Sequence record: PX441839.1
Reading direction: 5' to 3' (one strand)
Source of the DNA: a phage
DNA: 64,000 nucleotides
Made by a program: the position numbers and the translations under genes. The notes under the pieces are model-generated. The model was given only the letters and a program-made list of their open reading frames with translations, was not told the origin of the DNA and made no database searches. Of this stretch, positions 1 to 54,361 are shown piece by piece (the stretch's first letter is position 1; each line of letters begins with the position of its first letter).

Positions 1-1
1 T

Positions 2-178
2 GTAAACCTGGCGGCAACTGCTACCCTTCCGGCTTATCGTACCCGTGAAGAAGCTCGCGCCGTTGCCAGTAAACTCCGCGCCGCTGGAGTTACCCCAACA
101 ACGCCAGCTAAAACAGTAGAAGGGTGGCGAGTAATGGCTAAACATTCCGGCGGTACGCTCTCAATCAATCGCCATTAA
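2..178 (+). CDS. 3' end of a hypothetical protein truncated by the window start
   Basis: Open frame runs from the window edge to TAA at 176-178. Confidence 0.3.
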   Translation, partial: VNLAATATLPAYRTREEARAVASKLRAAGVTPTTPAKTVEGWRVMAKHSGGTLSINRH

Positions 179-202
179 TACACCTTAGGCCCCAGGCGGG
201 GC

Positions 203-316
203 CTGTTATGTTATCCTGTCCGGCGATCCTTACTTGCTATCCGGTTCAAGTCCGGTTGATTTTCCAGGCGGGGCGGTATGTGAGCGGGTTCAATCCCCGC
301 CAGGATAACATAACAG
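203..316 (+). ncRNA. tRNA-like structured element closed by a perfect 16-bp inverted repeat
   Basis: Arms ctgttatgttatcctg (203-218) and caggataacataacag (301-316) are exact reverse complements. Core has a canonical T-arm (gcggg-ttcaatc-cccgc, 284-300) and an anticodon-like hairpin (ccgg-ttcaagt-ccgg, 241-255). At 97 nt with no clean D-arm it is not a standard tRNA. Confidence 0.35.
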
Positions 317-337
317 AAAACAATCGAGGGTTTACCC

Positions 338-682
338 ATGACCAAACAGATCCACAGTGTACAGATCACGCCGCTTTTCCGTTGCCATATCTTTTATGAC
401 TGCAATGATCTTGCGGGACAATGGATCGGAGATACCGATGATCAATACGATTTTCCCGAATGGGACGAATTAAACAGGCGAGTAAGCAACGCCGCACATA
501 ATGCCGATCCTGATAACCTGGCAGACGTTTCACACTTTCCAGGCGGGGCCGCTTGCTTTCCCTATATCGAAATAACCGCGCCAACGTGGGCGCTATGTAA
601 ATCGATGGGGGACGCCGTGATCCGTTGCATCCTGGATAATGGCGGGATTGTTGAGCCAAAAGATAACGGAATAAATATTTAA
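338..682 (+). CDS. hypothetical early protein (114 aa)
   Basis: Six-frame ORF with a GAGGG RBS before the ATG; no recognisable motif. Confidence 0.4.
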   Translation: MTKQIHSVQITPLFRCHIFYDCNDLAGQWIGDTDDQYDFPEWDELNRRVSNAAHNADPDNLADVSHFPGGAACFPYIEITAPTWALCKSMGDAVIRCILDNGGIVEPKDNGINI

Positions 683-701
683 ATTATTTTCGTTTTAGGT
701 G

Positions 702-730
702 TTGACACCGAGACCGAATAAAAGCATAAT
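702..730 (+). promoter_or_regulatory. sigma70-type early promoter (class I, followed by leader hairpin)
   Basis: TTGACA, 17-bp spacer, CATAAT; the conserved leader cacatagggcgacacaacgtcgccc begins about 5 nt downstream. Confidence 0.6.
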
Positions 731-740
731 GCATCACATA

Positions 741-759
741 GGGCGACACAACGTCGCCC
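741..759 (+). promoter_or_regulatory. conserved 5' leader hairpin (GGGCGAC-acaac-GTCGCCC)
   Basis: 7-bp stem with 5-nt loop right after the -10; near-identical copies at 1118-1136 and 5267-5285, variants at 3515-3537, 7684-7710 and 8830-8860. Confidence 0.55.
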
Positions 760-782
760 ACTAACAAAGAGTGAGACAGTAA

Positions 783-1067
783 ATGATTACATTAAACCGC
801 GATGTTAACGAACAAGTTAAAAACTTTATCCGTCGCCCCCAGGAGTCAGGATACCCGCTAATCCTTGTAATGAAAGATGGTGGTGTGTTGTGTCATGAAT
901 GTGCCAAAAAAGAATTTAAAATGATCATTGCCGATACGCGAGAAGGTTGGAATACAGAATGGACAGCACTTGGAACAGAATTATTTTTAGAGGGTCCTGT
1001 TATTGAGTGTTCTCATTGCTACAAGGATATAGAGAGCGCATACGGCGATCCGAATTCAGAAGAATAA
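783..1067 (+). CDS. small early protein, Cys4 zinc-ribbon-like (94 aa)
   Basis: ORF with promoter, leader hairpin and RBS upstream; Cys pairs C-H-E-C and C-S-H-C. Confidence 0.55.
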   Translation: MITLNRDVNEQVKNFIRRPQESGYPLILVMKDGGVLCHECAKKEFKMIIADTREGWNTEWTALGTELFLEGPVIECSHCYKDIESAYGDPNSEE

Positions 1068-1079
1068 TAAAATAAAGTA

Positions 1080-1108
1080 TTGACAACATAAACAACTTGA
1101 ACGATAAT
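1080..1108 (+). promoter_or_regulatory. sigma70-type early promoter (class I)
   Basis: TTGACA, 17 bp, GATAAT, followed by the conserved leader hairpin at 1118-1136. Confidence 0.55.
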
Positions 1109-1162
1109 GTAACACATAGGGCGACACAACGTCGCCCACTAACAAACTAGTAAGGGTATACA

Positions 1163-1396
1163 ATGAATCTTAATGTTATTGGCGCAAATCAAACGGTTGT
1201 TACTTTTTCAGACAATACTCAATTATTCTATTCTTATAATACCCCAGTGGCTGCTTTTATCCCTGGCGAAGGATACATAGTGACCGCAACAAAGTATAGT
1301 CGTACCACGACACGACACATTAACAACTTTACAGGGGGTTTAGTTGATCGTGTTGAGTCCCAAACATTTTTTGATAATTTAGTAAAAACCGCTTGA
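1163..1396 (+). CDS. hypothetical early protein (77 aa)
   Basis: ORF with own promoter and AGGG RBS. Confidence 0.5.
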   Translation: MNLNVIGANQTVVTFSDNTQLFYSYNTPVAAFIPGEGYIVTATKYSRTTTRHINNFTGGLVDRVESQTFFDNLVKTA

Positions 1397-1430
1397 CGTT
1401 GGTTTATGCCTGGTACATAATACTAGGCAT
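1393..1430 (+). promoter_or_regulatory. sigma70-type early promoter (class II, -10 inside a covarying palindrome)
   Basis: TTGACG, 17 bp, CATAAT; inverted repeat atgcctggta / tactaggcat flanks the -10. Confidence 0.6.
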
Positions 1431-1468
1431 AGGCAAACGAAAGCAGACAACCAAACGAGGGTTACAAA

Positions 1469-1828
1469 ATGACTAACATGATCGCACTGACTGAAAAACG
1501 TAATGCACTGGAAAACATCCTGGCAAAAATCAAAGAGAAGCAAGCAGAAATCGACTCTTTTGAGTACGAGTCCAGCACGTCAGAATATGATGATTATTTG
1601 GACAGTGAAGGGGAAATCACCGTTGCGGGAATGACATTCTGGCCGTCAGATATCCTTAAGAATTGTGATCCTACTGCATACCGTTGCGGGAAAGTGGACT
1701 ATGATTCAAGTAAGGACCTGGATGACGTGGAAGAATACCAGGCGTTACAGGAAGAACTGGAAGAACTGGAAAACGAACGTGACGATCTGGAAAGTGAGAT
1801 CGAAGAACTGGAAGAAGGCGAAGAATAA
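1469..1828 (+). CDS. highly acidic small early protein (119 aa)
   Basis: ORF with class II promoter; C-terminal third is almost entirely Glu/Asp/Leu (EELEELENERDDLESEIEELEEGEE). Confidence 0.55.
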   Translation: MTNMIALTEKRNALENILAKIKEKQAEIDSFEYESSTSEYDDYLDSEGEITVAGMTFWPSDILKNCDPTAYRCGKVDYDSSKDLDDVEEYQALQEELEELENERDDLESEIEELEEGEE

Positions 1829-1833
1829 AAGTA

Positions 1834-1862
1834 TTGACAGGGGCGGTAAAACGCCCCATAAT
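1834..1862 (+). promoter_or_regulatory. sigma70-type early promoter (class III, GGGGCGG/CCGCCCC hairpin in spacer)
   Basis: TTGACA, spacer ggggcggtaaaacgccc, CATAAT; identical copy at 4097-4125. Confidence 0.6.
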
Positions 1863-1892
1863 GACAGGACCAAAACAAAGAGAGTAAAGAAG

Positions 1893-2102
1893 ATGATTAA
1901 CGAAAAACAAATCAATGATATCCGTGACGAAGCCTATCAAGTTGCGATCCGTGACGGTTCCCGCGCCGCCTTTATCTTTGTTACGGATCTTTATCCAGAA
2001 CAGGCAGAAAATATATTGATGCAAGTTTCTGTTTTACTGGAAGCAACAAAGCGCACAAAGTTAAGCAACGGGATCGATAAGTTGGCAAAAACTTTAAAAT
2101 AA
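1893..2102 (+). CDS. hypothetical early protein (69 aa)
   Basis: First ATG downstream of the class III promoter, in frame with listed ORF 1665..2102. Confidence 0.45.
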   Translation: MINEKQINDIRDEAYQVAIRDGSRAAFIFVTDLYPEQAENILMQVSVLLEATKRTKLSNGIDKLAKTLK

Positions 2103-2104
2103 TT

Positions 2105-2143
2105 GTTGACTTTGATTTATGCCGCTGTATAATGGGCGGCATA
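2105..2143 (+). promoter_or_regulatory. sigma70-type early promoter (class II)
   Basis: TTGACT, 17 bp, TATAAT; palindrome atgccgc / gcggcat flanks the -10. Confidence 0.55.
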
Positions 2144-2185
2144 GGTAAGAGAAACAAACACAAACCAAGTAAACAAGGGTGTATC

Positions 2186-2674
2186 ATGAAAATTGAAAAA
2201 TTCAAATCACTGTCTAACTATTCTTCCGACTTGATTGACGGCGTGATCCAAGCTTTTGGGAGTGAAGAATATTTCCTGGAGAGTTTTAGAGATGTTGCTC
2301 GATACGGCGGCGACAAAGGGATCGGTTTCATTTACTACACGGAAACGGACCAATTCTGGAAAGATTTAGGCCCACAAATTAAAGAGATGGTAGAAATAGA
2401 CGCCGAATCTTTCACCGGATCAAATGACTATTACACCGTGTGCGAAATGCTGGCAGGGTTCAAAATCTCAAAACAAAATGATCTTTGTGTTGACAAGTGG
2501 TTAGAGTTCCTATATGGTATCAGCCAGGACGAAGAAAATAGTTTAGATGCCCTTTGTGATGAGTGGGATCAAAATATGGCCCGTTGGGTGCTGGGGGTGT
2601 ATGCCGTTGAACGTGTATCCCAAGATCTGGAAAGTTTAATTGATAACGGGGATATTGACGAGGAAGATGTTTAA
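2186..2674 (+). CDS. hypothetical early protein (162 aa)
   Basis: ATG at 2186 downstream of promoter; the listed start at 2132 lies inside the -10 element. Confidence 0.5.
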   Translation: MKIEKFKSLSNYSSDLIDGVIQAFGSEEYFLESFRDVARYGGDKGIGFIYYTETDQFWKDLGPQIKEMVEIDAESFTGSNDYYTVCEMLAGFKISKQNDLCVDKWLEFLYGISQDEENSLDALCDEWDQNMARWVLGVYAVERVSQDLESLIDNGDIDEEDV

Positions 2675-2985
2675 TGCTAACGTGGATCGTGTTGGCTTTA
2701 TGCGGGGTGGCGGCGATCTTTTGTGTCGCCACACATAAAAAGTACCTTTACAAAAAGGCTGAAAAAGTGTTCGGATACTTTGAGTATGAATATGATGGGG
2801 AGGTTTCCACATCGCGGGACTATGGACCTATGCTTGAAATTGATATGGTGGGCGCTATGCGACACCGCCAGGAGTGTGGCGCACACATAACGTTTAGTCA
2901 TTTTGGAACAGAAGATGAGATTTTCGACATCATAGACAAACGAGAATATTTGCGCCAACAACAAAAAACACGCCGTAAGTTTTAA
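2674..2985 (+). CDS. hypothetical membrane-anchored early protein (103 aa)
   Basis: Start overlaps the upstream stop (TAATG); hydrophobic N-terminal segment. Confidence 0.45.
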   Translation: MLTWIVLALCGVAAIFCVATHKKYLYKKAEKVFGYFEYEYDGEVSTSRDYGPMLEIDMVGAMRHRQECGAHITFSHFGTEDEIFDIIDKREYLRQQQKTRRKF

Positions 2986-3007
2986 TTGAGTAGAGAGAGG
3001 GTTTAAG

Positions 3008-3148
3008 ATGATTGCAACTAATACTAACCGTGACAAAATCAGCCATAAGAACAAATTAAGCTATGGTGAAGCAAAGGAGCGGATCACAGTATCAAAGGCC
3101 AATAAGCAACAACGCCGCAAAACGCGCTATAGCTGGGACAGCTTATAA
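3008..3148 (+). CDS. small basic protein (46 aa), not in the ORF track
   Basis: ATG at 3008 after GAGAGGG RBS; Arg/Lys-rich C-terminus; terminator hairpin follows at 3188-3214. Confidence 0.3.
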   Translation: MIATNTNRDKISHKNKLSYGEAKERITVSKANKQQRRKTRYSWDSL

Positions 3149-3187
3149 AGAGGGGAGGATTGTACCCACACTGATTTAAAACCTTAC

Positions 3188-3214
3188 AGGGGCCTTTATA
3201 GGCCCCTTATTTTT
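3188..3214 (+). terminator. rho-independent terminator
   Basis: aggggcc-tttata-ggcccct followed by a T-run. Confidence 0.5.
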
Positions 3215-3230
3215 GATAAGAGGTATCAAC

Positions 3231-3458
3231 ATGCAGAACATTTTAGGTTTAACTGATTTTATCCGCGCCCTTAAGGGCCGATCGTTGGGTTTTTCTGCCG
3301 TCTATATGGTGCCGGAGGGTAAGACATACAGCCAAGCCGTTAATGGCCTTATAGCAACGGCGGCAAGGGAAAACGTGAAGATCTCCACAGGCCAGATCCT
3401 AGCAGTTGATCCCGCCACATTTGCCACCATAGCGGCGATCAAAGTTACCGTAAAATAA
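3231..3458 (+). CDS. hypothetical early protein (75 aa)
   Basis: ATG at 3231 after AAGAGG RBS. Confidence 0.45.
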   Translation: MQNILGLTDFIRALKGRSLGFSAVYMVPEGKTYSQAVNGLIATAARENVKISTGQILAVDPATFATIAAIKVTVK

Positions 3459-3481
3459 TTTAAAATATTTTGTTTTTGGGT

Positions 3482-3510
3482 GTTGACAGGGGAAAGGGAT
3501 TGCCCCATAA
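3482..3510 (+). promoter_or_regulatory. sigma70-type early promoter (class III + leader hairpin)
   Basis: TTGACA, 17 bp with gggg..cccc, CATAAT; degenerate leader hairpin at 3515-3537. Confidence 0.55.
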
Positions 3511-3574
3511 TACACCACATAGAGCGACACAACGTCGCAAATTAAAACCAACTAACTAAGAGTGAGACAGTAAA

Positions 3575-4093
3575 ATGGGAAGCCCAAACTTTAAAACTTC
3601 AAACGTAAGATTAAACCTTGCATCTTTCCCGTTCAATGATTACAATGATGATGAGGAGATTCAAGAGCAAAACTATGAAGACCACAGTTATTGGGTAGAA
3701 CAGCAATATGAAGCAATGAAAGCGGTTATCGATGAGATTCCTACCCCTGATTTTTGGGATATCCACATCGAAAGCGGCTATCATGAAGGATTCCAGGTAT
3801 ACATTGAAAGTAATTGCGGCGATGATTATCAGGATCAAGTGTTCCAAGATCTTTACCGTTACAATGAGGCTTGCTTGCCGTCAGGTTATCCTTTAAATAT
3901 GCAAGACTTACCTTACGCAAGAAAGGGATCTGTAAACATTACCCCTTTTAATTTGAAATATGCTATTGAAAACGAGTACAAGGCGATCCATAATAAGATT
4001 TTAGCAGCAGCAAAGGAGGCTGGGATCGGTGAAGTGTTCGGATCTTCCTGGTGCTCAAATGTAGGACCTATTGAAAGTAAACTGATTAAATAA
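3575..4093 (+). CDS. hypothetical early protein (172 aa)
   Basis: ORF with promoter and leader upstream; acidic N-terminal region. Confidence 0.55.
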   Translation: MGSPNFKTSNVRLNLASFPFNDYNDDEEIQEQNYEDHSYWVEQQYEAMKAVIDEIPTPDFWDIHIESGYHEGFQVYIESNCGDDYQDQVFQDLYRYNEACLPSGYPLNMQDLPYARKGSVNITPFNLKYAIENEYKAIHNKILAAAKEAGIGEVFGSSWCSNVGPIESKLIK

Positions 4094-4096
4094 ATG

Positions 4097-4125
4097 TTGA
4101 CAGGGGCGGTAAAACGCCCCATAAT
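4097..4125 (+). promoter_or_regulatory. sigma70-type early promoter (class III)
   Basis: Identical to the promoter at 1834-1862. Confidence 0.6.
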
Positions 4126-4156
4126 GACAAGACCAAAACAAAAAGAGAAAGAAACA

Positions 4157-4309
4157 ATGAAACACTATCTAGTTAATATACCTGGTGTTGCGGGACCGCT
4201 CAAAGTTTACGGGTACGACGAAAAGGACGCAAGAAAGCGCCTACGTGATCGGGAAGGGTACAGAAAACGCCTACCCAATGGCACAAAACTTTATTTAAAA
4301 ACAGCTTGA
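4157..4309 (+). CDS. small basic protein (50 aa)
   Basis: First ATG after the promoter; listed ORF 4094..4309 begins inside the promoter. Confidence 0.4.
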   Translation: MKHYLVNIPGVAGPLKVYGYDEKDARKRLRDREGYRKRLPNGTKLYLKTA

Positions 4310-4345
4310 CGTTAGGTTATGCCGCCCCTATAATGGACGGCATAG
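4306..4345 (+). promoter_or_regulatory. sigma70-type early promoter (class II)
   Basis: TTGACG, 17 bp, TATAAT; palindrome atgccgcc / ggacggcat around the -10. Confidence 0.55.
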
Positions 4346-4375
4346 GCAAACGAAAGAAAACTAAGGTGATTCATT

Positions 4376-4648
4376 ATGAAAAGTAAACTGTCAAGAGAAG
4401 AAATTAGTCAAGTGTTATCTTTCAACATGCAAGACTGGAAAGAAAACGCCGACATTTGCGAAGCTCAAGATCTTAACGAAGAATTAACAATTGACGAAAT
4501 AAGCATTGTGTGCTCACCTGATTTTTATGATGAGTTGCACGAAAAAGATGATCTTTTTAACGTCCTGGAGAATAATTTCATGGATACCGATTTATGTGTG
4601 TACAGTATCGATACTTTTATTCTTATCCATAACATATACAACAACTAA
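4376..4648 (+). CDS. hypothetical acidic early protein (90 aa)
   Basis: ORF with promoter and RBS. Confidence 0.5.
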   Translation: MKSKLSREEISQVLSFNMQDWKENADICEAQDLNEELTIDEISIVCSPDFYDELHEKDDLFNVLENNFMDTDLCVYSIDTFILIHNIYNN

Positions 4649-4664
4649 AGGAAAGGGCCGCATT

Positions 4665-4955
4665 ATGTTTGAAGTATTCGCCGGAATGTGTTTTTATGGT
4701 GCTATGGCATTGCGTCAATGTGAAGATTACACCGTTGAAGTGTATCATGATCCCTTATCTTGCGAGATCGTGGCGCAAGATTACCGACAGGATAAACGCT
4801 GGCTTAATCCTCAGTGTATCCCATCGCCGGAGGTTGAACCAATGCCAGAAGGTGAAGCCCTGGAAGGTGAGGAGATCCGCGCCGTTGTTAGCTATATGCT
4901 AGATAACTTAAACGCCGATCAGCTTGTTTCTATGTATGCAGAAACAGAAAAATAA
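4665..4955 (+). CDS. hypothetical early protein (96 aa)
   Basis: ATG at 4665 after AAAGGAAAGGG RBS, in frame with listed ORF 4506..4955. Confidence 0.45.
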   Translation: MFEVFAGMCFYGAMALRQCEDYTVEVYHDPLSCEIVAQDYRQDKRWLNPQCIPSPEVEPMPEGEALEGEEIRAVVSYMLDNLNADQLVSMYAETEK

Positions 4956-4958
4956 TTG

Positions 4959-4999
4959 TTGACGTTGGTTTATGCCGTCGCATATAATAGACGGCATAG
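4959..4999 (+). promoter_or_regulatory. sigma70-type early promoter (class II)
   Basis: TTGACG, 18 bp, TATAAT; palindrome atgccgtcg / cgacggcat around the -10. Confidence 0.55.
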
Positions 5000-5031
5000 G
5001 CAAACGAAACAAACCATAAAAGGGTTACAAA

Positions 5032-5223
5032 ATGAAATCATCTTTACTTTTTTGCACTGTAAACATCATCATTGGTAACGGTTGCGGATCTCATGAATTT
5101 ATTAAGGGCAAGCCTTACAGCCTTTCATCGCTGCAAGCTGATTTTCGTTTATTGCCAGGACAGATCCGCAAATACTTTCGCGCCCCGTATCCAAAAGGAT
5201 ATAAAACAAATTTAGCAAAATAA
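5032..5223 (+). CDS. hypothetical early protein (63 aa)
   Basis: ORF with promoter and RBS. Confidence 0.4.
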   Translation: MKSSLLFCTVNIIIGNGCGSHEFIKGKPYSLSSLQADFRLLPGQIRKYFRAPYPKGYKTNLAK

Positions 5224-5227
5224 AGTA

Positions 5228-5256
5228 TTGACAAGGGGCACAGATTACCCCATAAT
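5228..5256 (+). promoter_or_regulatory. sigma70-type early promoter (class III + leader hairpin)
   Basis: TTGACA, 17 bp with gggg..cccc, CATAAT; leader hairpin at 5267-5285. Confidence 0.55.
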
Positions 5257-5307
5257 GTAACACATAGGGCGACACAACGTCGCCCACTAACAAAAGAGAT
5301 AAACAAA

Positions 5308-5592
5308 ATGATCAAGGCAAACAACTTTTTCTTCCTGGCTAACGTAGCGGATCACATCGTGGCAGAATTTAGAAACGTGGATGCAACAGCATTTATAAAA
5401 ATGCGTCATGAAAAAGACGTTTCAACGGATCGCGTAGAAATGGAAGTTACCCGCCACGGCAAAGAGTTTAAAATCAAATATCTGATTATCGTAAATAATG
5501 CAACATTTAGCGAGGGAACCAGCGAACCGATCCCGGACAATATGATCCAGCAAGTGATCGCCGCCGTTGCTAACGGATCAATTTTACCTTAA
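5308..5592 (+). CDS. hypothetical early protein (94 aa)
   Basis: ORF with promoter and leader. Confidence 0.5.
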   Translation: MIKANNFFFLANVADHIVAEFRNVDATAFIKMRHEKDVSTDRVEMEVTRHGKEFKIKYLIIVNNATFSEGTSEPIPDNMIQQVIAAVANGSILP

Positions 5593-5599
5593 AAAGTTG

Positions 5600-5640
5600 T
5601 TGACGTTGGTTTATGTGGGGCGTATAATTCCCCACATAGA
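5600..5640 (+). promoter_or_regulatory. sigma70-type early promoter (class II)
   Basis: TTGACG, 17 bp, TATAAT; palindrome atgtggggcg / ccccacat around the -10. Confidence 0.55.
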
Positions 5641-5661
5641 CAAACGAAACGAGAGATTAAA

Positions 5662-5868
5662 ATGTACACCATGATCGCACTTGCAGTATACTTCCTTTCA
5701 TCTTGCATTTACATTATGTTGGCGCTTGCCTTCCCTGGTGAGTTGGTTTATAGTTTTATGGGCGTAGATCTTGTTTTATGGGCGGTCGCCACGCCACTGA
5801 TGATCGTTCCCGCCGTGATCATTTATTGGATTGAAGAAAAGATTACTGATTTGCTAAAAGGCTATTGA
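5662..5868 (+). CDS. small integral membrane protein (68 aa)
   Basis: ORF with two predicted hydrophobic helices. Confidence 0.45.
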   Translation: MYTMIALAVYFLSSCIYIMLALAFPGELVYSFMGVDLVLWAVATPLMIVPAVIIYWIEEKITDLLKGY

Positions 5869-5926
5869 CAAGGCAACCACAAACAAAGATAATAGCCTCA
5901 TTGAAAACAACTAGTAAGGATTTACG

Positions 5927-6079
5927 ATGTATAAGCTGTTAACCTGGGAACATGAGACAAGCCAACCGATTAGCCGTGACTTTTTCGATTTGTGCGCCGC
6001 TTACCGACTGGCAAAAGGCGGTTACTATAAAGCCCAAATCATTGATGAAAATAATGTTGTACTTTATGAGTTTAAATGA
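5927..6079 (+). CDS. small protein (50 aa), not in the ORF track
   Basis: ATG at 5927 after AAGGA RBS; followed by hairpin gcgccccgaaaggggcg at 6087-6103. Confidence 0.3.
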   Translation: MYKLLTWEHETSQPISRDFFDLCAAYRLAKGGYYKAQIIDENNVVLYEFK

Positions 6080-6133
6080 TTAACAAGCGCCCCGAAAGGG
6101 GCGATAATTACCACACAAAACAGGAGACAGTAA

Positions 6134-6376
6134 ATGAAAGTTCAAAATGTATTGATTTGTGAAGATTGCGCCTTGTACCTTAATACAGGTGAGCTTCCCG
6201 CTGATACCACACCAGAAGATGATCAGGACATCATCCACGGGGCGGAATATCTAGATATAACTTACAAATTTGGGAGTGTAGGCACTAGTTTAGGCTTTTC
6301 AATAAAACCGTGTGAATGTTGCGGATCTCGCCTGGCCGGAGATCGCTATGAATATGATAATCTTGGCTTAAAATAG
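6134..6376 (+). CDS. small zinc-ribbon protein (80 aa)
   Basis: CEDC ... CECCG Cys pairs; GGAGA RBS. Confidence 0.5.
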   Translation: MKVQNVLICEDCALYLNTGELPADTTPEDDQDIIHGAEYLDITYKFGSVGTSLGFSIKPCECCGSRLAGDRYEYDNLGLK

Positions 6377-6536
6377 TAGTTGACTACAACGAAAGAAAAG
6401 AATACTATGTATCACATGAAAGGCAAACAGCCTAAACCAACAAAGAGAGAAACAAAATGAGCGTAGTATTCTTAATTTCAGTTTTCGTAGCTATCGCCGC
6501 TTCAACCGCAATTTGTGTAAAATTAGGATGGTAAGA

Positions 6537-6932
6537 ATGGAAAGTGTAAAAGATACCCTGTTAAATGCTTTTTTGTCCGGCGCTACTGAGGCGTTATTGT
6601 TCGCAGAATCCGCAGAAGATGCAAACGGGGAGACAATCGAACATTTGAACGGTTACGAATTAAGCAATGCAAGCAAAGCACTGTTAAAACTGGAATCTGT
6701 TAAATTCTTAGATTTAGGAAACAACTTAATAGAAAAAGCTATTGACAGTAGCGGCGATTTATACGATTATACTCAAGCGGGGCGGGATTTTTGGTTTACT
6801 CGTCAAGGTCACGGCGTAGGATTCTGGGATCGGGGTCTTGGGGAAGTTGGGGACCAGCTAACAGAACTTTCAAAATGTTTCGGTGAGCGCTGGATCTCTT
6901 TGAATGAAAATAATTTTGTAGAGGTTGAATGA
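6537..6932 (+). CDS. hypothetical protein (about 131 aa; start uncertain)
   Basis: In frame with listed ORF 6513..6932; ATG at 6537 has an AGGA RBS. Confidence 0.45.
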   Translation: MESVKDTLLNAFLSGATEALLFAESAEDANGETIEHLNGYELSNASKALLKLESVKFLDLGNNLIEKAIDSSGDLYDYTQAGRDFWFTRQGHGVGFWDRGLGEVGDQLTELSKCFGERWISLNENNFVEVE

Positions 6933-7276
6933 TGGCTGAAAAATTCTCAATAACTCAAAAGACAATTTACACCATTAAAAGCAAACACGGCGTTATTGAG
7001 TGTGAAGGGATAGCAGGACTAGAAAAGCACGTAGAGGAAACATTAGGCGCTTTTGTTGACAACATGCACGGCAACCATACAGGACTAAGATCAAAAGATC
7101 GGATCAATGATTATGATTACCTGTTAGAGAATCGCCAGGACTTAGAAACAATTTTCGCCCTTATGGATGCCGTTAAGGATCTGAAAAATCCACCATCGCC
7201 GGATCACGATTGTGATGATTATTATTGTAACCGTTGCGGATCTGGATCGGCCATTGAATACGTAGGAAATAATTAA
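6929..7276 (+). CDS. hypothetical protein with C-terminal Cys cluster (115 aa)
   Basis: Start overlaps the upstream stop; CDDYYCNRCG motif. Confidence 0.5.
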   Translation: MMAEKFSITQKTIYTIKSKHGVIECEGIAGLEKHVEETLGAFVDNMHGNHTGLRSKDRINDYDYLLENRQDLETIFALMDAVKDLKNPPSPDHDCDDYYCNRCGSGSAIEYVGNN

Positions 7277-7278
7277 CA

Positions 7279-7500
7279 ATGCAAACTAAAAACCTGTTAG
7301 GAAAATCTGATTTTTTAAGAGCGCTCGCGCCTGGCGAATCGGCGGTATGGAACGTGCAAGGGAAAGATGTAGAAAAGGAAATGCGCCTGTTTACTGCTAC
7401 CGCTTGCCGCCTGGCAGTGACTATCACACAAAGGGCCGCTTTAATTGTTTTGGCTGATAACTTGCCCTTACATTGTGTAATCGTGACTAAGGTTAAGTGA
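7279..7500 (+). CDS. hypothetical protein (73 aa)
   Basis: Abuts the upstream gene. Confidence 0.45.
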   Translation: MQTKNLLGKSDFLRALAPGESAVWNVQGKDVEKEMRLFTATACRLAVTITQRAALIVLADNLPLHCVIVTKVK

Positions 7501-7511
7501 ATGACAATAAC

Positions 7512-7555
7512 AGGCCCAAATAGTGAACGTATGGCGCTATAAGGGCCTTTTTGGT
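7512..7555 (+). terminator. rho-independent terminator
   Basis: aggccc ... gggcct stem followed by ttttt. Confidence 0.45.
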
Positions 7556-7646
7556 AAGAGGTAAGGCAATCAGGCACTAAAGCCTAAAAATTCAATACAG
7601 ACCCTTACAGGGCCTCACATCAAAAATAAAAATCATCTTAAAAGTG

Positions 7647-7675
7647 TTGACTCTTAAATTACTTTTCGGTATCTT
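7647..7675 (+). promoter_or_regulatory. putative sigma70-type promoter with variant leader hairpin
   Basis: TTGACT, 17 bp, TATCTT; leader variant gggcggcaatggtgccaaggccc at 7684-7710. Confidence 0.4.
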
Positions 7676-7728
7676 TTACCACGTAGGGCGGCAATGGTGC
7701 CAAGGCCCACAACTTAGGAGCCAGTAAG

Positions 7729-7983
7729 ATGACAACTTTCAAACACGTAATTTCTGTAAATACTGCTATCCTTGGCGGCGTGGAACGTGATAAAGCTTTT
7801 TATTCAAAGTATATCGGTGATTCATGTTTTAACTACTGGGGCATGAAGATGTCAGAAGTTCGCCGGATACTGGGATTCGGTAATACTGGCCGTAAAGTTA
7901 TTTCGGGCGATATCGCCAGAACTTTAAACGTAGGCTATGACATCGCCAAGAAAATTCTTTCCGATGTAGAAAAATCACTCTAA
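7729..7983 (+). CDS. hypothetical protein (84 aa)
   Basis: ORF with RBS; hairpin ggccccgaaaggggcc follows at 7991-8006. Confidence 0.5.
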   Translation: MTTFKHVISVNTAILGGVERDKAFYSKYIGDSCFNYWGMKMSEVRRILGFGNTGRKVISGDIARTLNVGYDIAKKILSDVEKSL

Positions 7984-8184
7984 TCATTAAGGCCCCGAAA
8001 GGGGCCAACATGCAAAGGGAATAGTAGTGATTTACTTTAAAAATGTTGAAACGGGCCGATTCTACCGCTTTAAAAATAGCCGTGTTTTGTTCCACATTGC
8101 TGGATTGTGGCGCATCAGCGACACATACAGACCCGCCGATCTTACGGGTTATCCTTTCATAGCTGTAAATATGGGACCATCATT

Positions 8185-8376
8185 ATGACCACAGAAAGCG
8201 ACATCAGACAAGCCCTGGCCGCTATGCGTTATCACCATAGATTAAAGAGCAGTGATCCAGGTTACGCCGGATCAACCTTTGAGAGGGATACCATAGAGGG
8301 GATCGCCACACTTAAGAACCTTATGGACCGTATGAGGGACAGCAACAGATCCGACTTTTTAGGGGAGGAGATTTAA
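8185..8376 (+). CDS. hypothetical protein (about 63 aa; start uncertain)
   Basis: Internal ATG of listed ORF 8107..8376. Confidence 0.35.
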   Translation: MTTESDIRQALAAMRYHHRLKSSDPGYAGSTFERDTIEGIATLKNLMDRMRDSNRSDFLGEEI

Positions 8377-8404
8377 TTTATCGGACCATAACCACTGGAT
8401 GTAA

Positions 8405-8440
8405 AAACAGGTTGATTTGGTCGGCCTGTTTTGTTATCTT
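8405..8440 (+). terminator. rho-independent terminator
   Basis: aacagg ... cctgtt stem followed by ttttgtt. Confidence 0.45.
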
Positions 8441-8795
8441 ATTTAGACGGCGGGCACCTGGGGACAGGGGGAGACAAACACCGGACCTGCCTGTTATTCA
8501 GGTTGACTTACCGGACCTGGGCCACGTTCTGCAAATGAAAATGGTTATCATTCCCAATAAAATCAAATACATACTTTCAAACCGTTGTCAAATTTATTTC
8601 ATACTACTGTATAAATATACATGGCCCTAAAACGCCCTGAATCGCGTTTTAAGCCGTTTTACCCTGAATCCTTACCCTACATCATTAAAAAATAGATCTC
8701 GCGAAATCGGACTTTCGCACTTTTTGCCCTTGCAAACATGAAAATTTTATGCTAGATGAGTTGGTTGGAATTGACAAAACTTTACAATCCCCCTA

Positions 8796-8824
8796 TTGAC
8801 GGCAAGCCCAGAAAAGCCTATTAT
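8796..8824 (+). promoter_or_regulatory. sigma70-type promoter with variant leader hairpin
   Basis: TTGACG, 17 bp, TATTAT, then cacatagggcggcaatggtgcgacggccc. Confidence 0.45.
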
Positions 8825-8876
8825 TTATCACATAGGGCGGCAATGGTGCGACGGCCCACAAAGAGGAGACCGTAAA

Positions 8877-9020
8877 ATGAACCTGACTAACTTTAACCGC
8901 TACTACATCCGCGACGAACAAGCTAACGCTTTCGGTTATGACCGCACCGCTGAAGCCGCTGAAAAGCAACATAAAATTTTCATCCGTTGGATTGCAGACT
9001 ATAAAAAGGCCCGCGCTTAA
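8877..9020 (+). CDS. small protein (47 aa)
   Basis: ATG at 8877 after AAGAGGAG RBS; the listed start at 8796 lies inside the promoter. Confidence 0.4.
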   Translation: MNLTNFNRYYIRDEQANAFGYDRTAEAAEKQHKIFIRWIADYKKARA

Positions 9021-9265
9021 TGTATCGCCTTTTTAAAATCAACCTTCCATTGTGGGCCGCTTTAGCGGTCCCCATTGCCTTTTCTGGTGATGCCTTAAAC
9101 AATTGGATTCTTTCCGCTGTACTTGGACCGGATCAAATAGTCGCAACATGCTTAAATGTTTTAAGTGCTACACTGGCAACTTCCCGCCTTGCCTACCGTG
9201 GCAAATCAATAAACCGTTATGATCTGGCGCTATCATTACCCGCTCTAATAACCTGCCTTAACTAA
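9020..9265 (+). CDS. hypothetical hydrophobic protein (81 aa)
   Basis: Start overlaps the upstream stop; last gene of the plus-strand early block. Confidence 0.4.
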   Translation: MYRLFKINLPLWAALAVPIAFSGDALNNWILSAVLGPDQIVATCLNVLSATLATSRLAYRGKSINRYDLALSLPALITCLN

Positions 9266-9272
9266 AAGACAC

Positions 9273-9299
9273 CCGCCCCACCCGGCGGGCTTTTCTTTT
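9273..9299 (+). terminator. rho-independent terminator ending the plus-strand early block
   Basis: cccgcc-ccaccc-ggcggg stem followed by cttttctttt. Confidence 0.55.
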
Positions 9300-9597
9300 G
9301 TCCCAAACGTGGCAAGCCAGAACATCCCGATCCGGTATCGGTCCTACTCCCCCAGCACATCCCCTTATCACCTCACCTGTTAAAATCAACTCATAATTTT
9401 ATTCACTTTAAGATGCATAATTGAATAAACGGCCCCAGGGTATAACGGCAAGGGTAAACAATTGCGACCAGTGTGGAGCGTTACAGCGAGTTTTAGACCC
9501 TATTGACTTCTATTTGCAAACGTGTATCAAGCCATAACTAACTAAAATCACCTTTTATTTACATAACTTGACACTACCTATTCACTTATCTGCATAT

Positions 9598-13969: not shown

Positions 13970-13972
13970 CCC

Positions 13973-52138: not shown

Positions 52139-52173
52139 TCTTAATACATAGCCCGTAAGGAATTGCGGGATTG

Positions 52174-52249
52174 CCGATTTAGCTCAGTTGGTAGAGCGCT
52201 TCACTTGTAATGATGATGTCGCAGGTTCGAGTCCTGCAATCGGCACCAG
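52174..52249 (+). tRNA. tRNA-Thr (anticodon UGU)
   Basis: Manual cloverleaf: acceptor gccgatt/aatcggc, D-arm gctc-agttggta-gagc, T-arm gcagg-ttcgagt-cctgc, CCA encoded; one U-U mismatch in the anticodon stem. Confidence 0.7.
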
Positions 52250-52254
52250 ATAAG

Positions 52255-52328
52255 GCCCAATAGCTCACTGGTGAGAGCCAACCCCTCATAAGGGTTAGGG
52301 CGGGGATCGTAACCCCGGTGGGCCACCA
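52255..52328 (+). tRNA. tRNA-Met (anticodon CAU; initiator, elongator or Ile-lysidine not distinguished)
   Basis: Acceptor ggcccaa/gtgggcc, anticodon arm aaccc-ctcataa-gggtt, CCA encoded. Confidence 0.75.
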
Positions 52329-52347
52329 ACCAAAGAGAGAATTTAGC

Positions 52348-52426
52348 GCGGGTGTATCTCATCCGTCTTCTAAACGGACGTTAACCGAGTAATTGGAGTA
52401 TGGGGGTTCGAATCCCTCCACCCGCG
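52348..52426 (+). tRNA. atypical tRNA-like gene with anticodon-type hairpin UCU (Arg?)
   Basis: Canonical T-arm ggggg-ttcgaat-ccctc and acceptor gcgggtg/cacccgc, but no D-arm, a 23-nt extra segment, no CCA, and the acceptor extends to a perfect 16-bp stem (52339-52354 / 52419-52434). Confidence 0.4.
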
Positions 52427-52450
52427 CTAAATTCTTTTGAGGTGTAAAAA

Positions 52451-52966
52451 TTGCTAAACTTGAAAAATCAAAATATAGATAAAGGCACGGGATATTTATA
52501 CGTGTACGATCCAAGTCACCCAATGGCAAATAAGTCTGGAAAGGTTTATGTTCACAGGTATGTTGCAGAGACGGGGTTTGGTATAAAACTAACACCTGAC
52601 CTGATAGTTCACCACAAGGATGAGAATAAGCTAAACAACGAGCTAACAAATCTCGAAGTTATGACTTATTCTGAACATGCCCGTCACCACCACGGGGCGG
52701 ATTTTGTAGAATGTGTATGCAAGACCTGTGGCAATGTAACTTTGAGGAGGCCCTCGGAAGTTGTATCATTTTGTTCACACAAGTGCTCAACAACATTCAG
52801 AAGGAAATTTGAAATCTCTCCTCAAGAGTTGCAGGATTTGGTTTGTAACTACCCAGTTAGTGTTATTGCAAAGATGTTTGGGGTTAGTGATACAGCAATA
52901 CACAAGAAATGTAAAACCCTAGGGATTAAAAAGATGCCGAAAGGATTCTTTTTAAGACTCCCTTGA
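52451..52966 (+). CDS. HNH homing endonuclease
   Basis: YVHRYVAE ... IVHHKDENKLNNELTNLEVMTYSEHARHH is a classic HNH motif; C-terminal Cys cluster and HTH-like region. Confidence 0.7.
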   Translation: MLNLKNQNIDKGTGYLYVYDPSHPMANKSGKVYVHRYVAETGFGIKLTPDLIVHHKDENKLNNELTNLEVMTYSEHARHHHGADFVECVCKTCGNVTLRRPSEVVSFCSHKCSTTFRRKFEISPQELQDLVCNYPVSVIAKMFGVSDTAIHKKCKTLGIKKMPKGFFLRLP

Positions 52967-52998
52967 CATAGGTAATTGATCCTGATAAGATAATTACA

Positions 52999-53397
52999 TT
53001 GTTTCATTTCGGGATCGACAATATGGCAAAAGCTGAGATCGTAACCCGTAAGCGTGGACGGCCTTCGAAAGAAGAAAGCACAGCCATTGCTACTGAAAAG
53101 GCAATTCTTGAATATCGCCTTAAAGTGGCGATGTTATTACCTACCGCTGTTGATACCCTTAAAGGTCTGTTAACGTCAGGCTCTGAAAAAGTTAAAGAGG
53201 GTACTGCAAAATTCCTGATCAATGAGGCTAAAGAGGTGTTTAACATCTACGTCGCAGAAGATAATCAGGACAGTGAAGCAGGTGGTACAGTATCTGCAAA
53301 CTCACAGACCCACGCTGGATCGTCTGATGAGATTAAAAACATTATGCCTCTTACTACGGAAATCCGTGAGTACAAGATGGCAGAAGGTGAAGATTAA
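52999..53397 (+). CDS. hypothetical protein with AT-hook-like RKRGRPSK (about 125-132 aa)
   Basis: Six-frame ORF; terminator follows. Confidence 0.45.
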   Translation: MFHFGIDNMAKAEIVTRKRGRPSKEESTAIATEKAILEYRLKVAMLLPTAVDTLKGLLTSGSEKVKEGTAKFLINEAKEVFNIYVAEDNQDSEAGGTVSANSQTHAGSSDEIKNIMPLTTEIREYKMAEGED

Positions 53398-53428
53398 GAC
53401 CCTTCGGGGTCTTTGAGTTTTCTTTTGA
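53398..53428 (+). terminator. rho-independent terminator
   Basis: gaccc-ttcg-gggtc followed by tttgagttttctttt. Confidence 0.5.
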
Positions 53429-53457
53429 CGATTATTTTCGTACAAAAGAGAATTTAA

Positions 53458-53544
53458 GCCAGGTTATACCGTAGGGGTAGCGGAGGAGACTGTAAATCTC
53501 TGGTCATTGCGACTCGGGTGGTTCGACGCCATCACCTGGCACCA
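53458..53544 (+). tRNA. tRNA-Tyr (anticodon GUA), type II
   Basis: Acceptor gccaggt/acctggc, anticodon arm ggaga-ctgtaaa-tctct, long variable arm, CCA encoded. Confidence 0.7.
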
Positions 53545-53549
53545 AATAT

Positions 53550-53639
53550 GGAGAGTTGGCAGAGCGGCTGAATGCACCTGACTTGAAATCAGGCGACCGT
53601 TAACTCGGTCCGTGGGTTCAAATCCTACGCTCTCCGCCA
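53550..53639 (+). tRNA. tRNA-Ser (anticodon UGA), type II
   Basis: Tracks E. coli tRNA-Ser: ggagagt-tg-gcagagcggctgaatgc ... cctga-cttgaaa-tcagg ... gtggg-ttcaaat-cctac ... gctctcc-g-cca. Confidence 0.85.
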
Positions 53640-53720
53640 AATATCGCCCCTTATATAAAAGAACACCTGCGCGGCTGGAAAAACCCACTCAACAGTTCTT
53701 GAAAAGGGGCAACAATTTAC

Positions 53721-53798
53721 GGATCATTAGCTACAATTGGTTAGAGCGGCTCACTGTTAATGAGACGGTTCGTGGTTCAAGTCCACGATGATCCGCCA
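53721..53798 (+). tRNA. tRNA-Asn (anticodon GUU)
   Basis: Acceptor ggatcat/atgatcc, anticodon loop ctgttaa, T-arm cgtgg-ttcaagt-ccacg, CCA encoded. Confidence 0.8.
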
Positions 53799-53805
53799 AA
53801 CAATA

Positions 53806-53950
53806 GAAGGGTAACTTAAAGGCGGGTGTCCTGCCACTGGCCTCCAAAACCAGTCGTAAGGGGTTAGATTCCTCACTCTTCTGCCAAGTCGGGGTGTGCG
53901 CCAAATAAGAGCGGGTTAGCAACTGTGTTGTAGATTAGTCTACCACCCCA
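53806..53950 (+). ncRNA. degenerate tRNA-like sequences / possible small stable RNAs within the tRNA cluster
   Basis: Hairpins actgg-cctccaaaa-ccagt and gtaga-ttag-tctac plus tRNA-like termini (agaaggg ... ctcttct-g-cca), but no canonical cloverleaf. Confidence 0.3.
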
Positions 53951-53960
53951 CACAATAAGA

Positions 53961-54036
53961 AGTCCTATAGTTTCAGCGGTTAAAATACTCGCCTGTCACG
54001 CGAGAGTCACGGGTTCGAATCCCGTTAGGACTGCCA
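53961..54036 (+). tRNA. tRNA-Asp (anticodon GUC)
   Basis: Acceptor agtccta/taggact, anticodon arm ctcgc-ctgtcac-gcgag, T-arm acggg-ttcgaat-cccgt, CCA encoded. Confidence 0.8.
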
Positions 54037-54043
54037 TTTCTGA

Positions 54044-54119
54044 TGGAGATTAGCTCAGTAGGTAGAGCAAGCGACCGATAATCGCTGGGTCACTGGTTCA
54101 AGTCCAGTATCTCCAACCA
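54044..54119 (+). tRNA. tRNA-Ile (anticodon GAU), with unusual C at position 33
   Basis: Acceptor tggagat/atctcca, D-arm gctc-agtaggta-gagc, anticodon arm agcga-ccgataa-tcgct, T-arm actgg-ttcaagt-ccagt, CCA encoded. Confidence 0.65.
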
Positions 54120-54124
54120 AATAC

Positions 54125-54201
54125 CTCCGTGTAGCTCAGTCTGGTAGAGCGATTGCTTTGGGAGCAATAGGTCCAACGTTCGAGTCGTTGTACGGAGACC
54201 A
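54125..54201 (+). tRNA. tRNA-Pro (anticodon UGG)
   Basis: Acceptor ctccgtg/tacggag, anticodon arm attgc-tttggga-gcaat, T-arm caacg-ttcgagt-cgttg, CCA encoded. Confidence 0.85.
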
Positions 54202-54204
54202 AAT

Positions 54205-54279
54205 TGGGGATTAGCCAAGCGGTAAGGCACGAGGCTTTGATCCTTGTATGCGGAGGTTCGAATCCTCCATCCCCAGCCA
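54205..54279 (+). tRNA. tRNA-Gln (anticodon UUG)
   Basis: Acceptor tggggat/atcccca, anticodon loop ctttgat, T-arm ggagg-ttcgaat-cctcc, CCA encoded. Confidence 0.8.
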
Positions 54280-54284
54280 AATAA

Positions 54285-54361
54285 GCGTCCTTAGTGTCAG
54301 TGGTCTAACACTCCATCCTTCCAAGTTGGAACCACGGGTTCGAATCCCGTAGGACGCTCCA
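54285..54361 (+). tRNA. tRNA-Gly (anticodon UCC)
   Basis: Acceptor gcgtcct/aggacgc, anticodon loop cttccaa, T-arm acggg-ttcgaat-cccgt, CCA encoded. Confidence 0.8.

Follow-up and report, generated by a model that had tools for sequence, protein, structure and literature searches.

A GC-rich hairpin repeated at the predicted 5′ ends of early transcripts in a Vequintavirinae-like phage

Why should several early promoters of one phage be followed, just after the predicted transcription start, by a GC-rich hairpin that recurs from promoter to promoter? This question is raised by a 64,000-nt stretch of phage DNA (sequence record PX441839.1; hereafter the window). An original prediction, made from the sequence alone, had placed a conserved leader hairpin on at least six early transcripts between positions 741 and 8860, and had proposed that it either stabilises these mRNAs at their 5′ ends or is recognised by a phage RNA-binding protein or by RNase III. 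Our computational analysis finds six copies in one register, as well as a weak seventh, at the promoter at 6380, that had been overlooked. We see about an even chance that the element is a sequence-independent 5′-terminal stabilising stem-loop, analogous to those of ompA, papA, and T7 gene 10.

Positions 1–9300 of the window hold a run of small plus-strand genes, nearly each of which has a near-consensus sigma-70 promoter upstream (consensus TTGACA, 17 nt, CATAAT or TATAAT). Sixteen of these promoters stand in tandem within 9 kb, each ahead of a small gene without known family. Positions 600–4964 are 96.9% identical to Salmonella phage SSBI34 (Vequintavirinae), and the window shows patchy identity of about 80% to the Certrevirus phages CR3, CR8, P7_Pc, KaOmega, F1M1E, and CB7. 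Judged from these relationships, the region is the early, hyperplastic part of an rV5-like or Certrevirus-like (Vequintavirinae) myophage. Buttimer et al. 2020 described a sigma-70-like early promoter for Certrevirus, AAAA(N3)TGTTGAC(N19)TATAAT, a motif that covers the promoters treated here as they occur in the early region of CB7, CR3, CR8, and CR9 (PMC7344957), and the genome paper of rV5 likewise describes this promoter (PMC3606486). Neither account, however, mentions hairpins in the leader, around the −10 hexamer, or in the spacer (PMC7344957, PMC3606486), and in our literature searches leader hairpins of Vequintavirinae were nowhere described.

The repeated hairpin and its promoter register

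The block CACATAGGGCGACACAACGTCGCCCACTAACAA has three exact occurrences, one weakened copy, and two variants with a long loop. The 21-mer TAGGGCGACACAACGTCGCCC is found on the plus strand at 739–759, 1117–1137, and 5265–5285, and with 3 mismatches at 3520–3540; none is expected by chance (100 dinucleotide-preserving shuffles). Its 5′ half, CAYRTAGRGCG, additionally matches 7680–7690 and 8829–8839. All six copies share one register, in which the −10 hexamer is followed by 4 variable nucleotides and then by CAC(A/G)TAG(G/A)GCG. The distance of about 5 nt after the −10 that had been given for the hairpin is correct for this conserved block, whereas the stem proper lies 10 nt after the −10. Despite differing promoter spacers, the exact copies agree at every one of 33 nt, and as RNA all three fold as had been proposed, with 7 bp in the stem and 5 nt in the loop (−14.3 kcal/mol, z −4.1 to −6.5). 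The window contains 27 strong sigma-70-type promoters, of which only six or seven are followed by a structured leader; the remaining leaders have about 0 to −2 kcal/mol, except for two minus-strand leaders at −4.1 and −5.7 kcal/mol. Since the leaders of these 27 promoters are either essentially unstructured or hairpin-bearing, the leader structure is not a by-product of composition.

Whether the hairpin lies within the mRNA depends on where transcription begins. The commonest start of E. coli RNA polymerase is 7 bp downstream of the −10; the enzyme uses positions 6–9 and strongly prefers a purine that follows a pyrimidine (PMC5730371). At the hairpin promoters, position 7 is a C and position 8 an A preceded by this C, and the leaders of another promoter group, class B (see below), have CATAG in the identical register. 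Because of the purine-after-pyrimidine rule and the sharing of CATAG by class B, the predicted start is the A in CATAG, at position 8 after the −10. The stem is predicted to begin at about +4, with AUA ahead of it. From promoter geometry and the start-site rules, the 5′ overhang would be 3 nt for a start at position 8 and 4–5 nt for starts at positions 7 or 6, so that any admissible start would probably fall upstream of the stem. The same geometry and published rules (PMC5730371) agree with the earlier placement of the hairpin within the transcript, at its extreme predicted 5′ end.

All copies are on the plus strand. The first exact copy (702–767) has TTGACA at 702–707, CATAAT at 725–730, and a predicted start at A738. 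Its stem pairs 741–747 with 753–759 around the loop ACAAC (748–752) inside the conserved block 735–767; a 94-aa open reading frame (ORF) starts at 783, and the leader has a z of −4.9 and scores 57.6 bits with the covariance model described below. In the second (1080–1145), the −35 at 1080–1085 and GATAAT at 1103–1108 precede a predicted start at A1116, a hairpin at 1119–1125/1131–1137, and a start codon at 1163. This copy folds with −14.3 kcal/mol on a 32-nt leader and with −15.3 kcal/mol (z −4.1) on a 50-nt leader, and it is matched by the covariance model. The third (5228–5293; −35 at 5228–5233, −10 at 5251–5256, predicted start A5264, hairpin 5267–5273/5279–5285, start codon 5308) has a z of −6.5 and the top covariance-model score, 59 bits.

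The copy at 3516 had been taken for a GGGCGG...GCCC variant, but is instead a decayed copy with a 5-bp GCGAC/GTCGC stem at 3524–3528/3534–3538. This unit (3483–3545; −35 at 3483–3488, −10 at 3506–3511, predicted start A3519, start codon 3575) also has a spacer hairpin, GGGG..CCCC; it folds with −7.7 kcal/mol (z −1.9 over 59 nt and −5.2 over 32 nt) and scores 46.7 bits. At the possible seventh unit (6380–6433), TTGACT at 6380–6385 and TACTAT at 6403–6408 are followed by the sequence CACATGAAAGGCAAACAGCCT, with CACAT at 6413–6417, and by a start codon at 6458. Its 4-bp stem AGGC/GCCT (6421–6424/6430–6433) has −5.1 kcal/mol and a z of −3.7.

The two long-loop variants that had been proposed are present as sequence at 7680 and 8829, but as folds they fare less well. 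The first (7647–7710; TTGACT at 7647–7652, TATCTT at 7670–7675, CACGTAGGGCGG from 7680, predicted start G7683, start codon 7729) is identical in SSBI34. Its outer stem pairs GGGC (7686–7689) with GCCC (7705–7708) and its inner stem GGCA (7690–7693) with TGCC (7698–7701); this fold barely beats shuffles, with −13.5 kcal/mol and a z of −0.7 over 49 nt, and −12.5 kcal/mol and a z of about −2.4 to −2.8 over 32 nt. The second (8796–8860; TTGACG at 8796–8801, TATTAT at 8819–8824, predicted start A8832, start codon 8877) pairs GGGC (8835–8838) with GCCC (8854–8857), and its fifth pair is a G·G mismatch. Over 48 nt, this hairpin is absent from the minimum-energy structure (z 0.1), and over 32 nt the leader has −8.5 kcal/mol and a z of −1.0 to −1.1. 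The CR3 orthologue of this variant has a perfect 6-bp stem, GGGCCG/CGGCCC.

Both long-loop leaders also hold a short reading frame (7694–7717 and 8843–8875) that opens with an AUG 12 nt from the predicted 5′ end and reads MVPRPTT-stop and MVRRPTKRRP-stop, respectively; the latter ends one base ahead of the main AUG. As neither has a Shine–Dalgarno sequence upstream, these frames are probably untranslated. Between a terminator-like hairpin (8404–8432) and the long-loop promoter at 8796 lie about 400 nt without an ORF (~8410–8800), which are about 80% conserved in CR3, P7_Pc, KaOmega, and F1M1E.

Hairpin diversity in related phages and at neighbouring promoters

A census of the strong promoters of the window and of seven related phage loci yielded 41 promoters with a CACATAG start, class B promoters being counted separately. 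Every distinct CACATAG leader forms a GC-rich hairpin, the first paired base of which lies at +4 to +6, with −7.6 to −16.7 kcal/mol and a z of mostly −3 to −7. The hairpins themselves come in several forms, given here as stem/loop/stem: GGGCGAC/ACAAC/G(U/C)CGCCC; GCGACGC/ACACC/GCG(C/A)CGC; GCGGGG/AAUGGU/CCCCGC; GGGGA/GUUGU/UCCCC; GGCGACGG/AAUAAC/CCGCCGCC; and, with a long loop, GGGC(C/G)G/CAAUGNNGCGA/CGGCCC. A single genome such as that of CR3 has five or six different hairpin sequences at this position, with loops of 4–11 nt. Stem length also bears on the proposed processing by RNase III, the substrates of which need a helix of about 20 bp, or roughly two helical turns; the R sites of T7 are of that size. 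Apart from the presence of a stem, nothing points to such a site: the stem never exceeds 7 bp, and most relatives have 5 bp and a mismatch, far below this length. We consider a role as an RNase III site extremely improbable.

The variation in the stems is partly compensatory. In an alignment of 15 sequences, 88.6% of cells are paired, compared with 24–58% when the partner column is slid, and 3 of the 7 stem pairs have changed on both sides (GC to CG twice; AU/GU/GC). A covariance model built from this alignment matches solely on the early-transcript strand and at a constant promoter-relative position, and an alignment of 33 of its matches gives the same covariation picture. From these patterns, the hairpin appears to be under selection. 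It might alternatively have no function of its own and be a passenger repeat of a duplicated or converted promoter cassette. This would fit the near-identical copies within the genome, the recombination of cassettes, and the tolerance of decayed copies, which have been kept at 3516 in the window and at 13971 in CB7. On the other hand, unrelated hairpin sequences occupy one position and show compensatory changes, conserved leaders stand beside variable spacers, and the element has persisted across four genera and in a second phage family. A mere passenger is very unlikely in our view.

This wider distribution includes Henunavirus (Hena1) and Seunavirus (4MG), where CAUCAGGGCGAC-ACA(A/C)C-GCCGCCCAC occurs downstream of promoters. 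In the T1-like Hanrivervirus (Drexlerviridae; G29-2 and IMG/VR contigs) the arrangement is CATAAT-N4-CACATAGGGCGGCACGGCGTCGCCCAC, with a G·U pair on the plus strand. The Hanrivervirus module precedes an unrelated 315-aa gene that has no homologue in the window or the related loci, and because the same −10/leader module fronts an unrelated gene there, we argue for a host-generic mechanism. Matches labelled 'Campylobacter phage' are unverified records classified as Hanrivervirus. Two tighter search patterns found the element in IMG/VR only in rV5-like myophage and Hanrivervirus-like contigs; a loose pattern (CATAGGGC N9-17 GCCCAC) gave 120 loci, all of them chance matches without promoter context. 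Rfam returned nothing relevant at an E of 5 or below. There was no match to the element in 5,426 complete E. coli genomes; it is therefore not a host or prophage element.

Conserved parts of the hairpin might be read by a factor acting in trans, either a regulator or antiterminator that binds RNA in the manner of N at boxB, or a dimeric repressor with an operator palindrome at +4 to +22. Certrevirus, Henunavirus, Seunavirus, and Hanrivervirus all retain the motif CACATAGGGCG...CGCCCAC and AC..C pentaloops, whereas the promoter spacers vary; the 33-nt identity of the three exact copies beside their differing spacers is of the same kind, and a place just past +1 fits an operator. However, five or six stem and loop sequences, with loops of 4–11 nt, share this position within a genome, and since stems, loops, and loop lengths differ in this way, one protein would be unable to read all the hairpins. 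The operator of a dimeric repressor is one palindrome with fixed half-site spacing, whereas each genome has several unrelated palindromes here. The module is also common to an unrelated phage family with an unrelated downstream gene, and the proteins encoded 3′ of the six hairpins of the window belong to no common family but are unrelated ORFans.

In the nut sites of phage lambda, too, early transcripts carry a small RNA hairpin with a pentaloop close to the promoter. The boxB hairpin has a GNRA-like loop (GAAAA or GAAGA) on a 5-bp stem, with boxA upstream. In the leaders studied here the loops are ACAAC, ACACC, ACGGC, AAUGAC, and others; ACAAC is not a GNRA-like boxB loop, and no conserved boxA and no Rfam match were found, a comparison that is based on the hairpin sequence and Rfam, no search for an N-like protein having been made. 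A candidate for the boxA of the rrn operons, GCCCACUAACAA, when read directly, agrees with GCUCUUUAACAA at 9 of 12 positions; this candidate was rejected, as it lacks the U-rich core and is unconserved in relatives. Recognition by a regulator of either kind seems quite unlikely. There is likewise a slim chance that the hairpin base, 5′-AUAGGGCG...CGCCCAC, is a tag by which a host or phage factor marks the early regulon as phage 'self'. Such a tag could spare early messages from a phage-induced decay of host mRNA or serve as a common temporal switch; the ~45-nt cassette could have spread across Vequintavirinae and Drexlerviridae in this capacity, and the A·C mismatches and AC..C loops could be recognition features rather than decay.

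The leader hairpin is one of several promoter-linked structures. A GC-rich stem-loop lies within −35 to +25 at nearly every early promoter. At class B promoters, which occur in the window with the −35 at 1393, 2106, 4306, 4959, and 5600 and also in the related loci, an 8–10 bp stem of the form TATGCCnnn...nnnGGCATA has the −10 hexamer within its loop and extends as far as the predicted start. Its distal part covaries from copy to copy and from phage to phage (CTGGTA/TACTAG, GTC/GAC, TGGGG/CCCCA, GGGT/ACCC) and includes two G·T pairs on the plus strand. Because this hairpin lies outside its promoter's own mRNA, it can act only as DNA or in read-through transcripts. Class C consists of a GC-rich hairpin inside the spacer between −35 and −10, such as GGGGCG gtaaaa CGCCCC. 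It is found at 1840–1856, 4103–4119, and 6087–6102, in weaker form at 3489–3505 and 5235–5250, and at most Certrevirus promoters of the related loci; it varies in a compensatory manner (GGGCC..GGCCC vs GGGTC..GACCC) and often accompanies the leader hairpin on one promoter.

Several mosaic junctions fall in the same places. At 4951–4964, the identity shared with SSBI34 falls from 97% to 85%, a further junction lies at about 6385, and homology to CR3, P7_Pc, KaOmega, and F1M1E stops at 747, within the 5′ arm of the hairpin. Since stem-loops are nearly universal at these promoters and the breakpoints fall in the cassettes, we regard the leader hairpin as part of a mobile promoter cassette like the PeSL (promoter-early stem-loop) cassettes of T4-type phages (RB49/phi1, PST, nt-1). 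The window shows their defining association of a strong early promoter and a linked GC-rich stem-loop ahead of ORFans, coinciding with mosaic breakpoints. PeSL cassettes likewise have a strong sigma-70-like early promoter, an AT-rich upstream region, and a GC-rich stem-loop at set positions, and they too are dense among small ORFans in a hyperplastic region, with breakpoints in the cassette or stem-loop (PMC2839356, PMC4122927). In the hyperplastic regions of RB49/phi1, Arbiol et al. distinguished five positional subclasses of promoter-linked stem-loops upstream of ORFans (PMC2839356). Those cassettes differ from the present ones in phage lineage (here Vequintavirinae and Drexlerviridae) and share no sequence similarity with them. 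Moreover, their subclass downstream of the −10 was described as lying before the start, whereas the window hairpin follows the predicted start and would thus be in the mRNA, and their stem-loops were read as terminators, whereas the stems of the window have no U-tract.

This context raises rival functions. As a PeSL-type intergenic stem-loop, the hairpin might bring about attenuation or insulation in read-through transcripts or keep 3′-exonucleases from them, or it might serve as a recombination joint between gene modules, its position at the local 5′ end being incidental. The covariation of class B and class C stems that lie outside their own mRNA favours such a role, as do the RB49/phi1 precedent of Arbiol et al., with terminator activity in one subclass and crossovers at stem-loops (PMC2839356), and the junctions at 747, 4951–4964, and ~6385 within cassettes. 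It is harder to reconcile with the plus-strand sequence after the stem (ACUAACAA), which has no U-tract, unlike the terminators of the window at 3188–3207 and 9272–9289. Many Certrevirus promoters bear both a spacer and a leader hairpin, so that the two are not interchangeable, and the spacing between leader hairpin and start site is strictly constant; a role as a joint, finally, is a consequence of repetition and not necessarily a function. We judge a PeSL-type function of this sort unlikely. An intrinsic terminator on the plus strand was considered separately and rejected on the basis of sequence: the eight nucleotides 3′ of the stem contain 0–1 U (ACUAACAA, ACAAACAA), compared with 5–6 U in the terminators of the window.

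A candidate 5′-terminal stabiliser

We return to the reading of the element as a generic 5′-terminal stabiliser, which we favour because the hairpin lies at a fixed distance from the start, varies in sequence, is shared with an unrelated phage family, and lacks a U-tract. In this mechanism, host sigma-70 RNA polymerase would make a subset of early mRNAs of which the element forms the first ~30 nt. The RNA would begin with 5′-AUA, followed by the GC-rich stem-loop, a U-poor, A-rich, unstructured spacer, the Shine–Dalgarno sequence, and the start codon, with the AUG about 45 nt from the predicted start. Acting generically through its structure and not its sequence, the hairpin, preceded by only ~3 unpaired 5′ nucleotides, would hinder RppH and the 5′-end-dependent attack of RNase E, which would lengthen the half-life and raise the yield of the early messages. 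Promoter and hairpin leader would together form a compact, portable cassette that is exchanged among gene modules and phage families. The start site, the action at the RNA level, and the stabilising effect we infer from what was computed, namely recurrence, promoter register, predicted folding, stem diversity with partial covariation, mosaic junctions, and phage distribution.

There is ample precedent for such a mechanism. E. coli mRNAs are protected, in a structure- rather than sequence-dependent way, when a stable hairpin lies no more than 2–4 nt from their 5′ end (PMC3997798, citing Emory, Bouvet, and Belasco), because a 5′ end must be single-stranded to be accepted by RppH or by the 5′ sensor of RNase E (PMC3997798). 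The element resembles the hairpins of E. coli ompA and papA, which lie within 2–4 nt of the 5′ end and give structure-based protection from RppH and RNase E (PMC3997798), a protection that here is predicted. In contrast, ompA and papA are single host genes with long 5′ untranslated regions, whereas in the window a ~45-nt leader is repeated on many phage genes and belongs to a mobile promoter cassette.

The closest likeness is to the phi10 leader of T7 gene 10. Its sequence, confirmed in T7, folds into an 8-bp stem with an ACAAC loop from +1 to +21; like the element at the predicted 5′ ends in the window, it has a GC-based stem that starts with GGG and ends with CCC, located in T7 at the 5′ end of a highly expressed mRNA, and the ACAAC loop is identical. 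An unstructured spacer and a strong Shine–Dalgarno sequence likewise follow the stem, and the start context, CAC(T)ATAGGG, is similar. The T7 hairpin stabilises its mRNA, and expression rises two- to four-fold with it, including when host promoters are used (PMC2254391, PMC6146998). It differs in beginning at +1, in its 8 bp, and in being transcribed by T7 RNA polymerase from a late promoter, whereas the window element belongs to sigma-70-type promoters and early genes, has three nucleotides before the stem, and has a stem of at most 7 bp. The likeness may be a case of convergence. A T7-type promoter was rejected as an explanation: CACATAGGG resembles CACTATAGGG but stands one base off its register, and a phage RNA polymerase gene is lacking from Certrevirus phages (PMC7344957). 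The earlier proposal of a 5′ stabiliser is supported by the predicted placement, in which ~3 unpaired nucleotides precede the stem as is reported to be required of such stem-loops, and by the near-identical precedent of T7 gene 10; a stabilising effect itself would follow by analogy.

Two properties of known stabilising stem-loops can be compared directly. Thermodynamic stability is found in the exact copies (−14.3 kcal/mol), while the copy at 3516 is weaker and that at 8829 doubtful. Conservation of structure over sequence is seen in at least five unrelated stem/loop sequences per genome and in the compensatory changes, with the caveat that A·C mismatches are frequent.

Several observations weigh against a stabilising role. 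Only about 40% of the early promoters have a leader hairpin, the others having class B or class C stem-loops, and because those stems lie outside their own mRNA, the hairpins might share a function that is unrelated to the mRNA 5′ end. Three unpaired nucleotides leave RppH some access, and the weakened copy at 3516 and the long-loop copy at 8829 are poor folds. The conservation of CACATAGGGCG and of AC..C loops across genera exceeds what a purely structural role needs. Furthermore, stem mismatches are A·C or C·A in about seven distinct hairpin types, compared with G·U in one, and the most widely distributed forms, GGGCGAC..GCCGCCC and GCGACGC..GCGCCGC, retain an A·C that corresponds to a G·U on the opposite strand. 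Such a bias is not what a plus-strand RNA helix would leave, although its cause may be the depletion of U in the leaders (10.7%, against a background of 24.3%). A comparison of fold energies between strands is confounded by the A/C-rich composition and was replaced by the typing of mismatches and a check of composition.

The mismatch bias could also indicate that the element acts on the opposite strand or as DNA, be it as an antisense hairpin (for example, a weak terminator against convergent transcription), a cruciform, or a template-strand structure. With the conserved A·C read as G·U on the minus strand, both main hairpin types become perfect 7-bp helices. A terminator scan flags the minus strand at 1137–1119 and 5285–5267 (tail TATGTGTT), and the adjoining gene cluster, from about 10 kb on, is transcribed convergently. 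However, the minus-strand tail UAUGUGnnnn has only 3–5 U in 10, and the 741 copy is not flagged. No strong minus-strand promoter lies within 1–9300, and a bidirectional terminator at 9272–9290 already divides the two clusters. U depletion in the leaders is a simpler cause of the mismatch bias, and the Hanrivervirus copy has its G·U on the plus strand. A function of this kind is, in our estimate, very improbable.

Both kinds of element, 5′ stabilising hairpins and promoter/stem-loop cassettes, are already described and established, so that no new mechanism is opened here; what is new, within the literature searched, is their occurrence in Vequintavirinae and Hanrivervirus. If stabilising, the hairpin would help explain how these lytic phages achieve a burst of early expression from host RNA polymerase alone, and expression design would gain a small, portable part that combines promoter and leader. 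The occurrence of a ~45-nt module before unrelated genes in two phage families, together with internal breakpoints, points to cassettes as joints of modular evolution outside the T4 group.

Other features of the window

Upstream of the first leader hairpin, a perfect 16-nt terminal inverted repeat (CTGTTATGTTATCCTG ... CAGGATAACATAACAG; 205–316) encloses about 80 nt with two motifs that resemble tRNA T-arms. Together with a terminator-like hairpin just upstream of the inverted repeat, this segment (183–322, 140 nt) folds with −59 kcal/mol and a z of −4.2. ARAGORN found no tRNA in the element at 205–316, and Rfam gave no match to it. The element is found in SSBI34, and positions 163–335 of the window are unaligned to CR3, P7_Pc, KaOmega, F1M1E, and CB7; a small insertion and a non-coding RNA are both conceivable. 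Far downstream, ten tRNA genes lie on the plus strand at 52173–54361, with the specificities Thr, Met, Tyr, Ser, Asn, Asp, Ile, Pro, Gln, and Gly.

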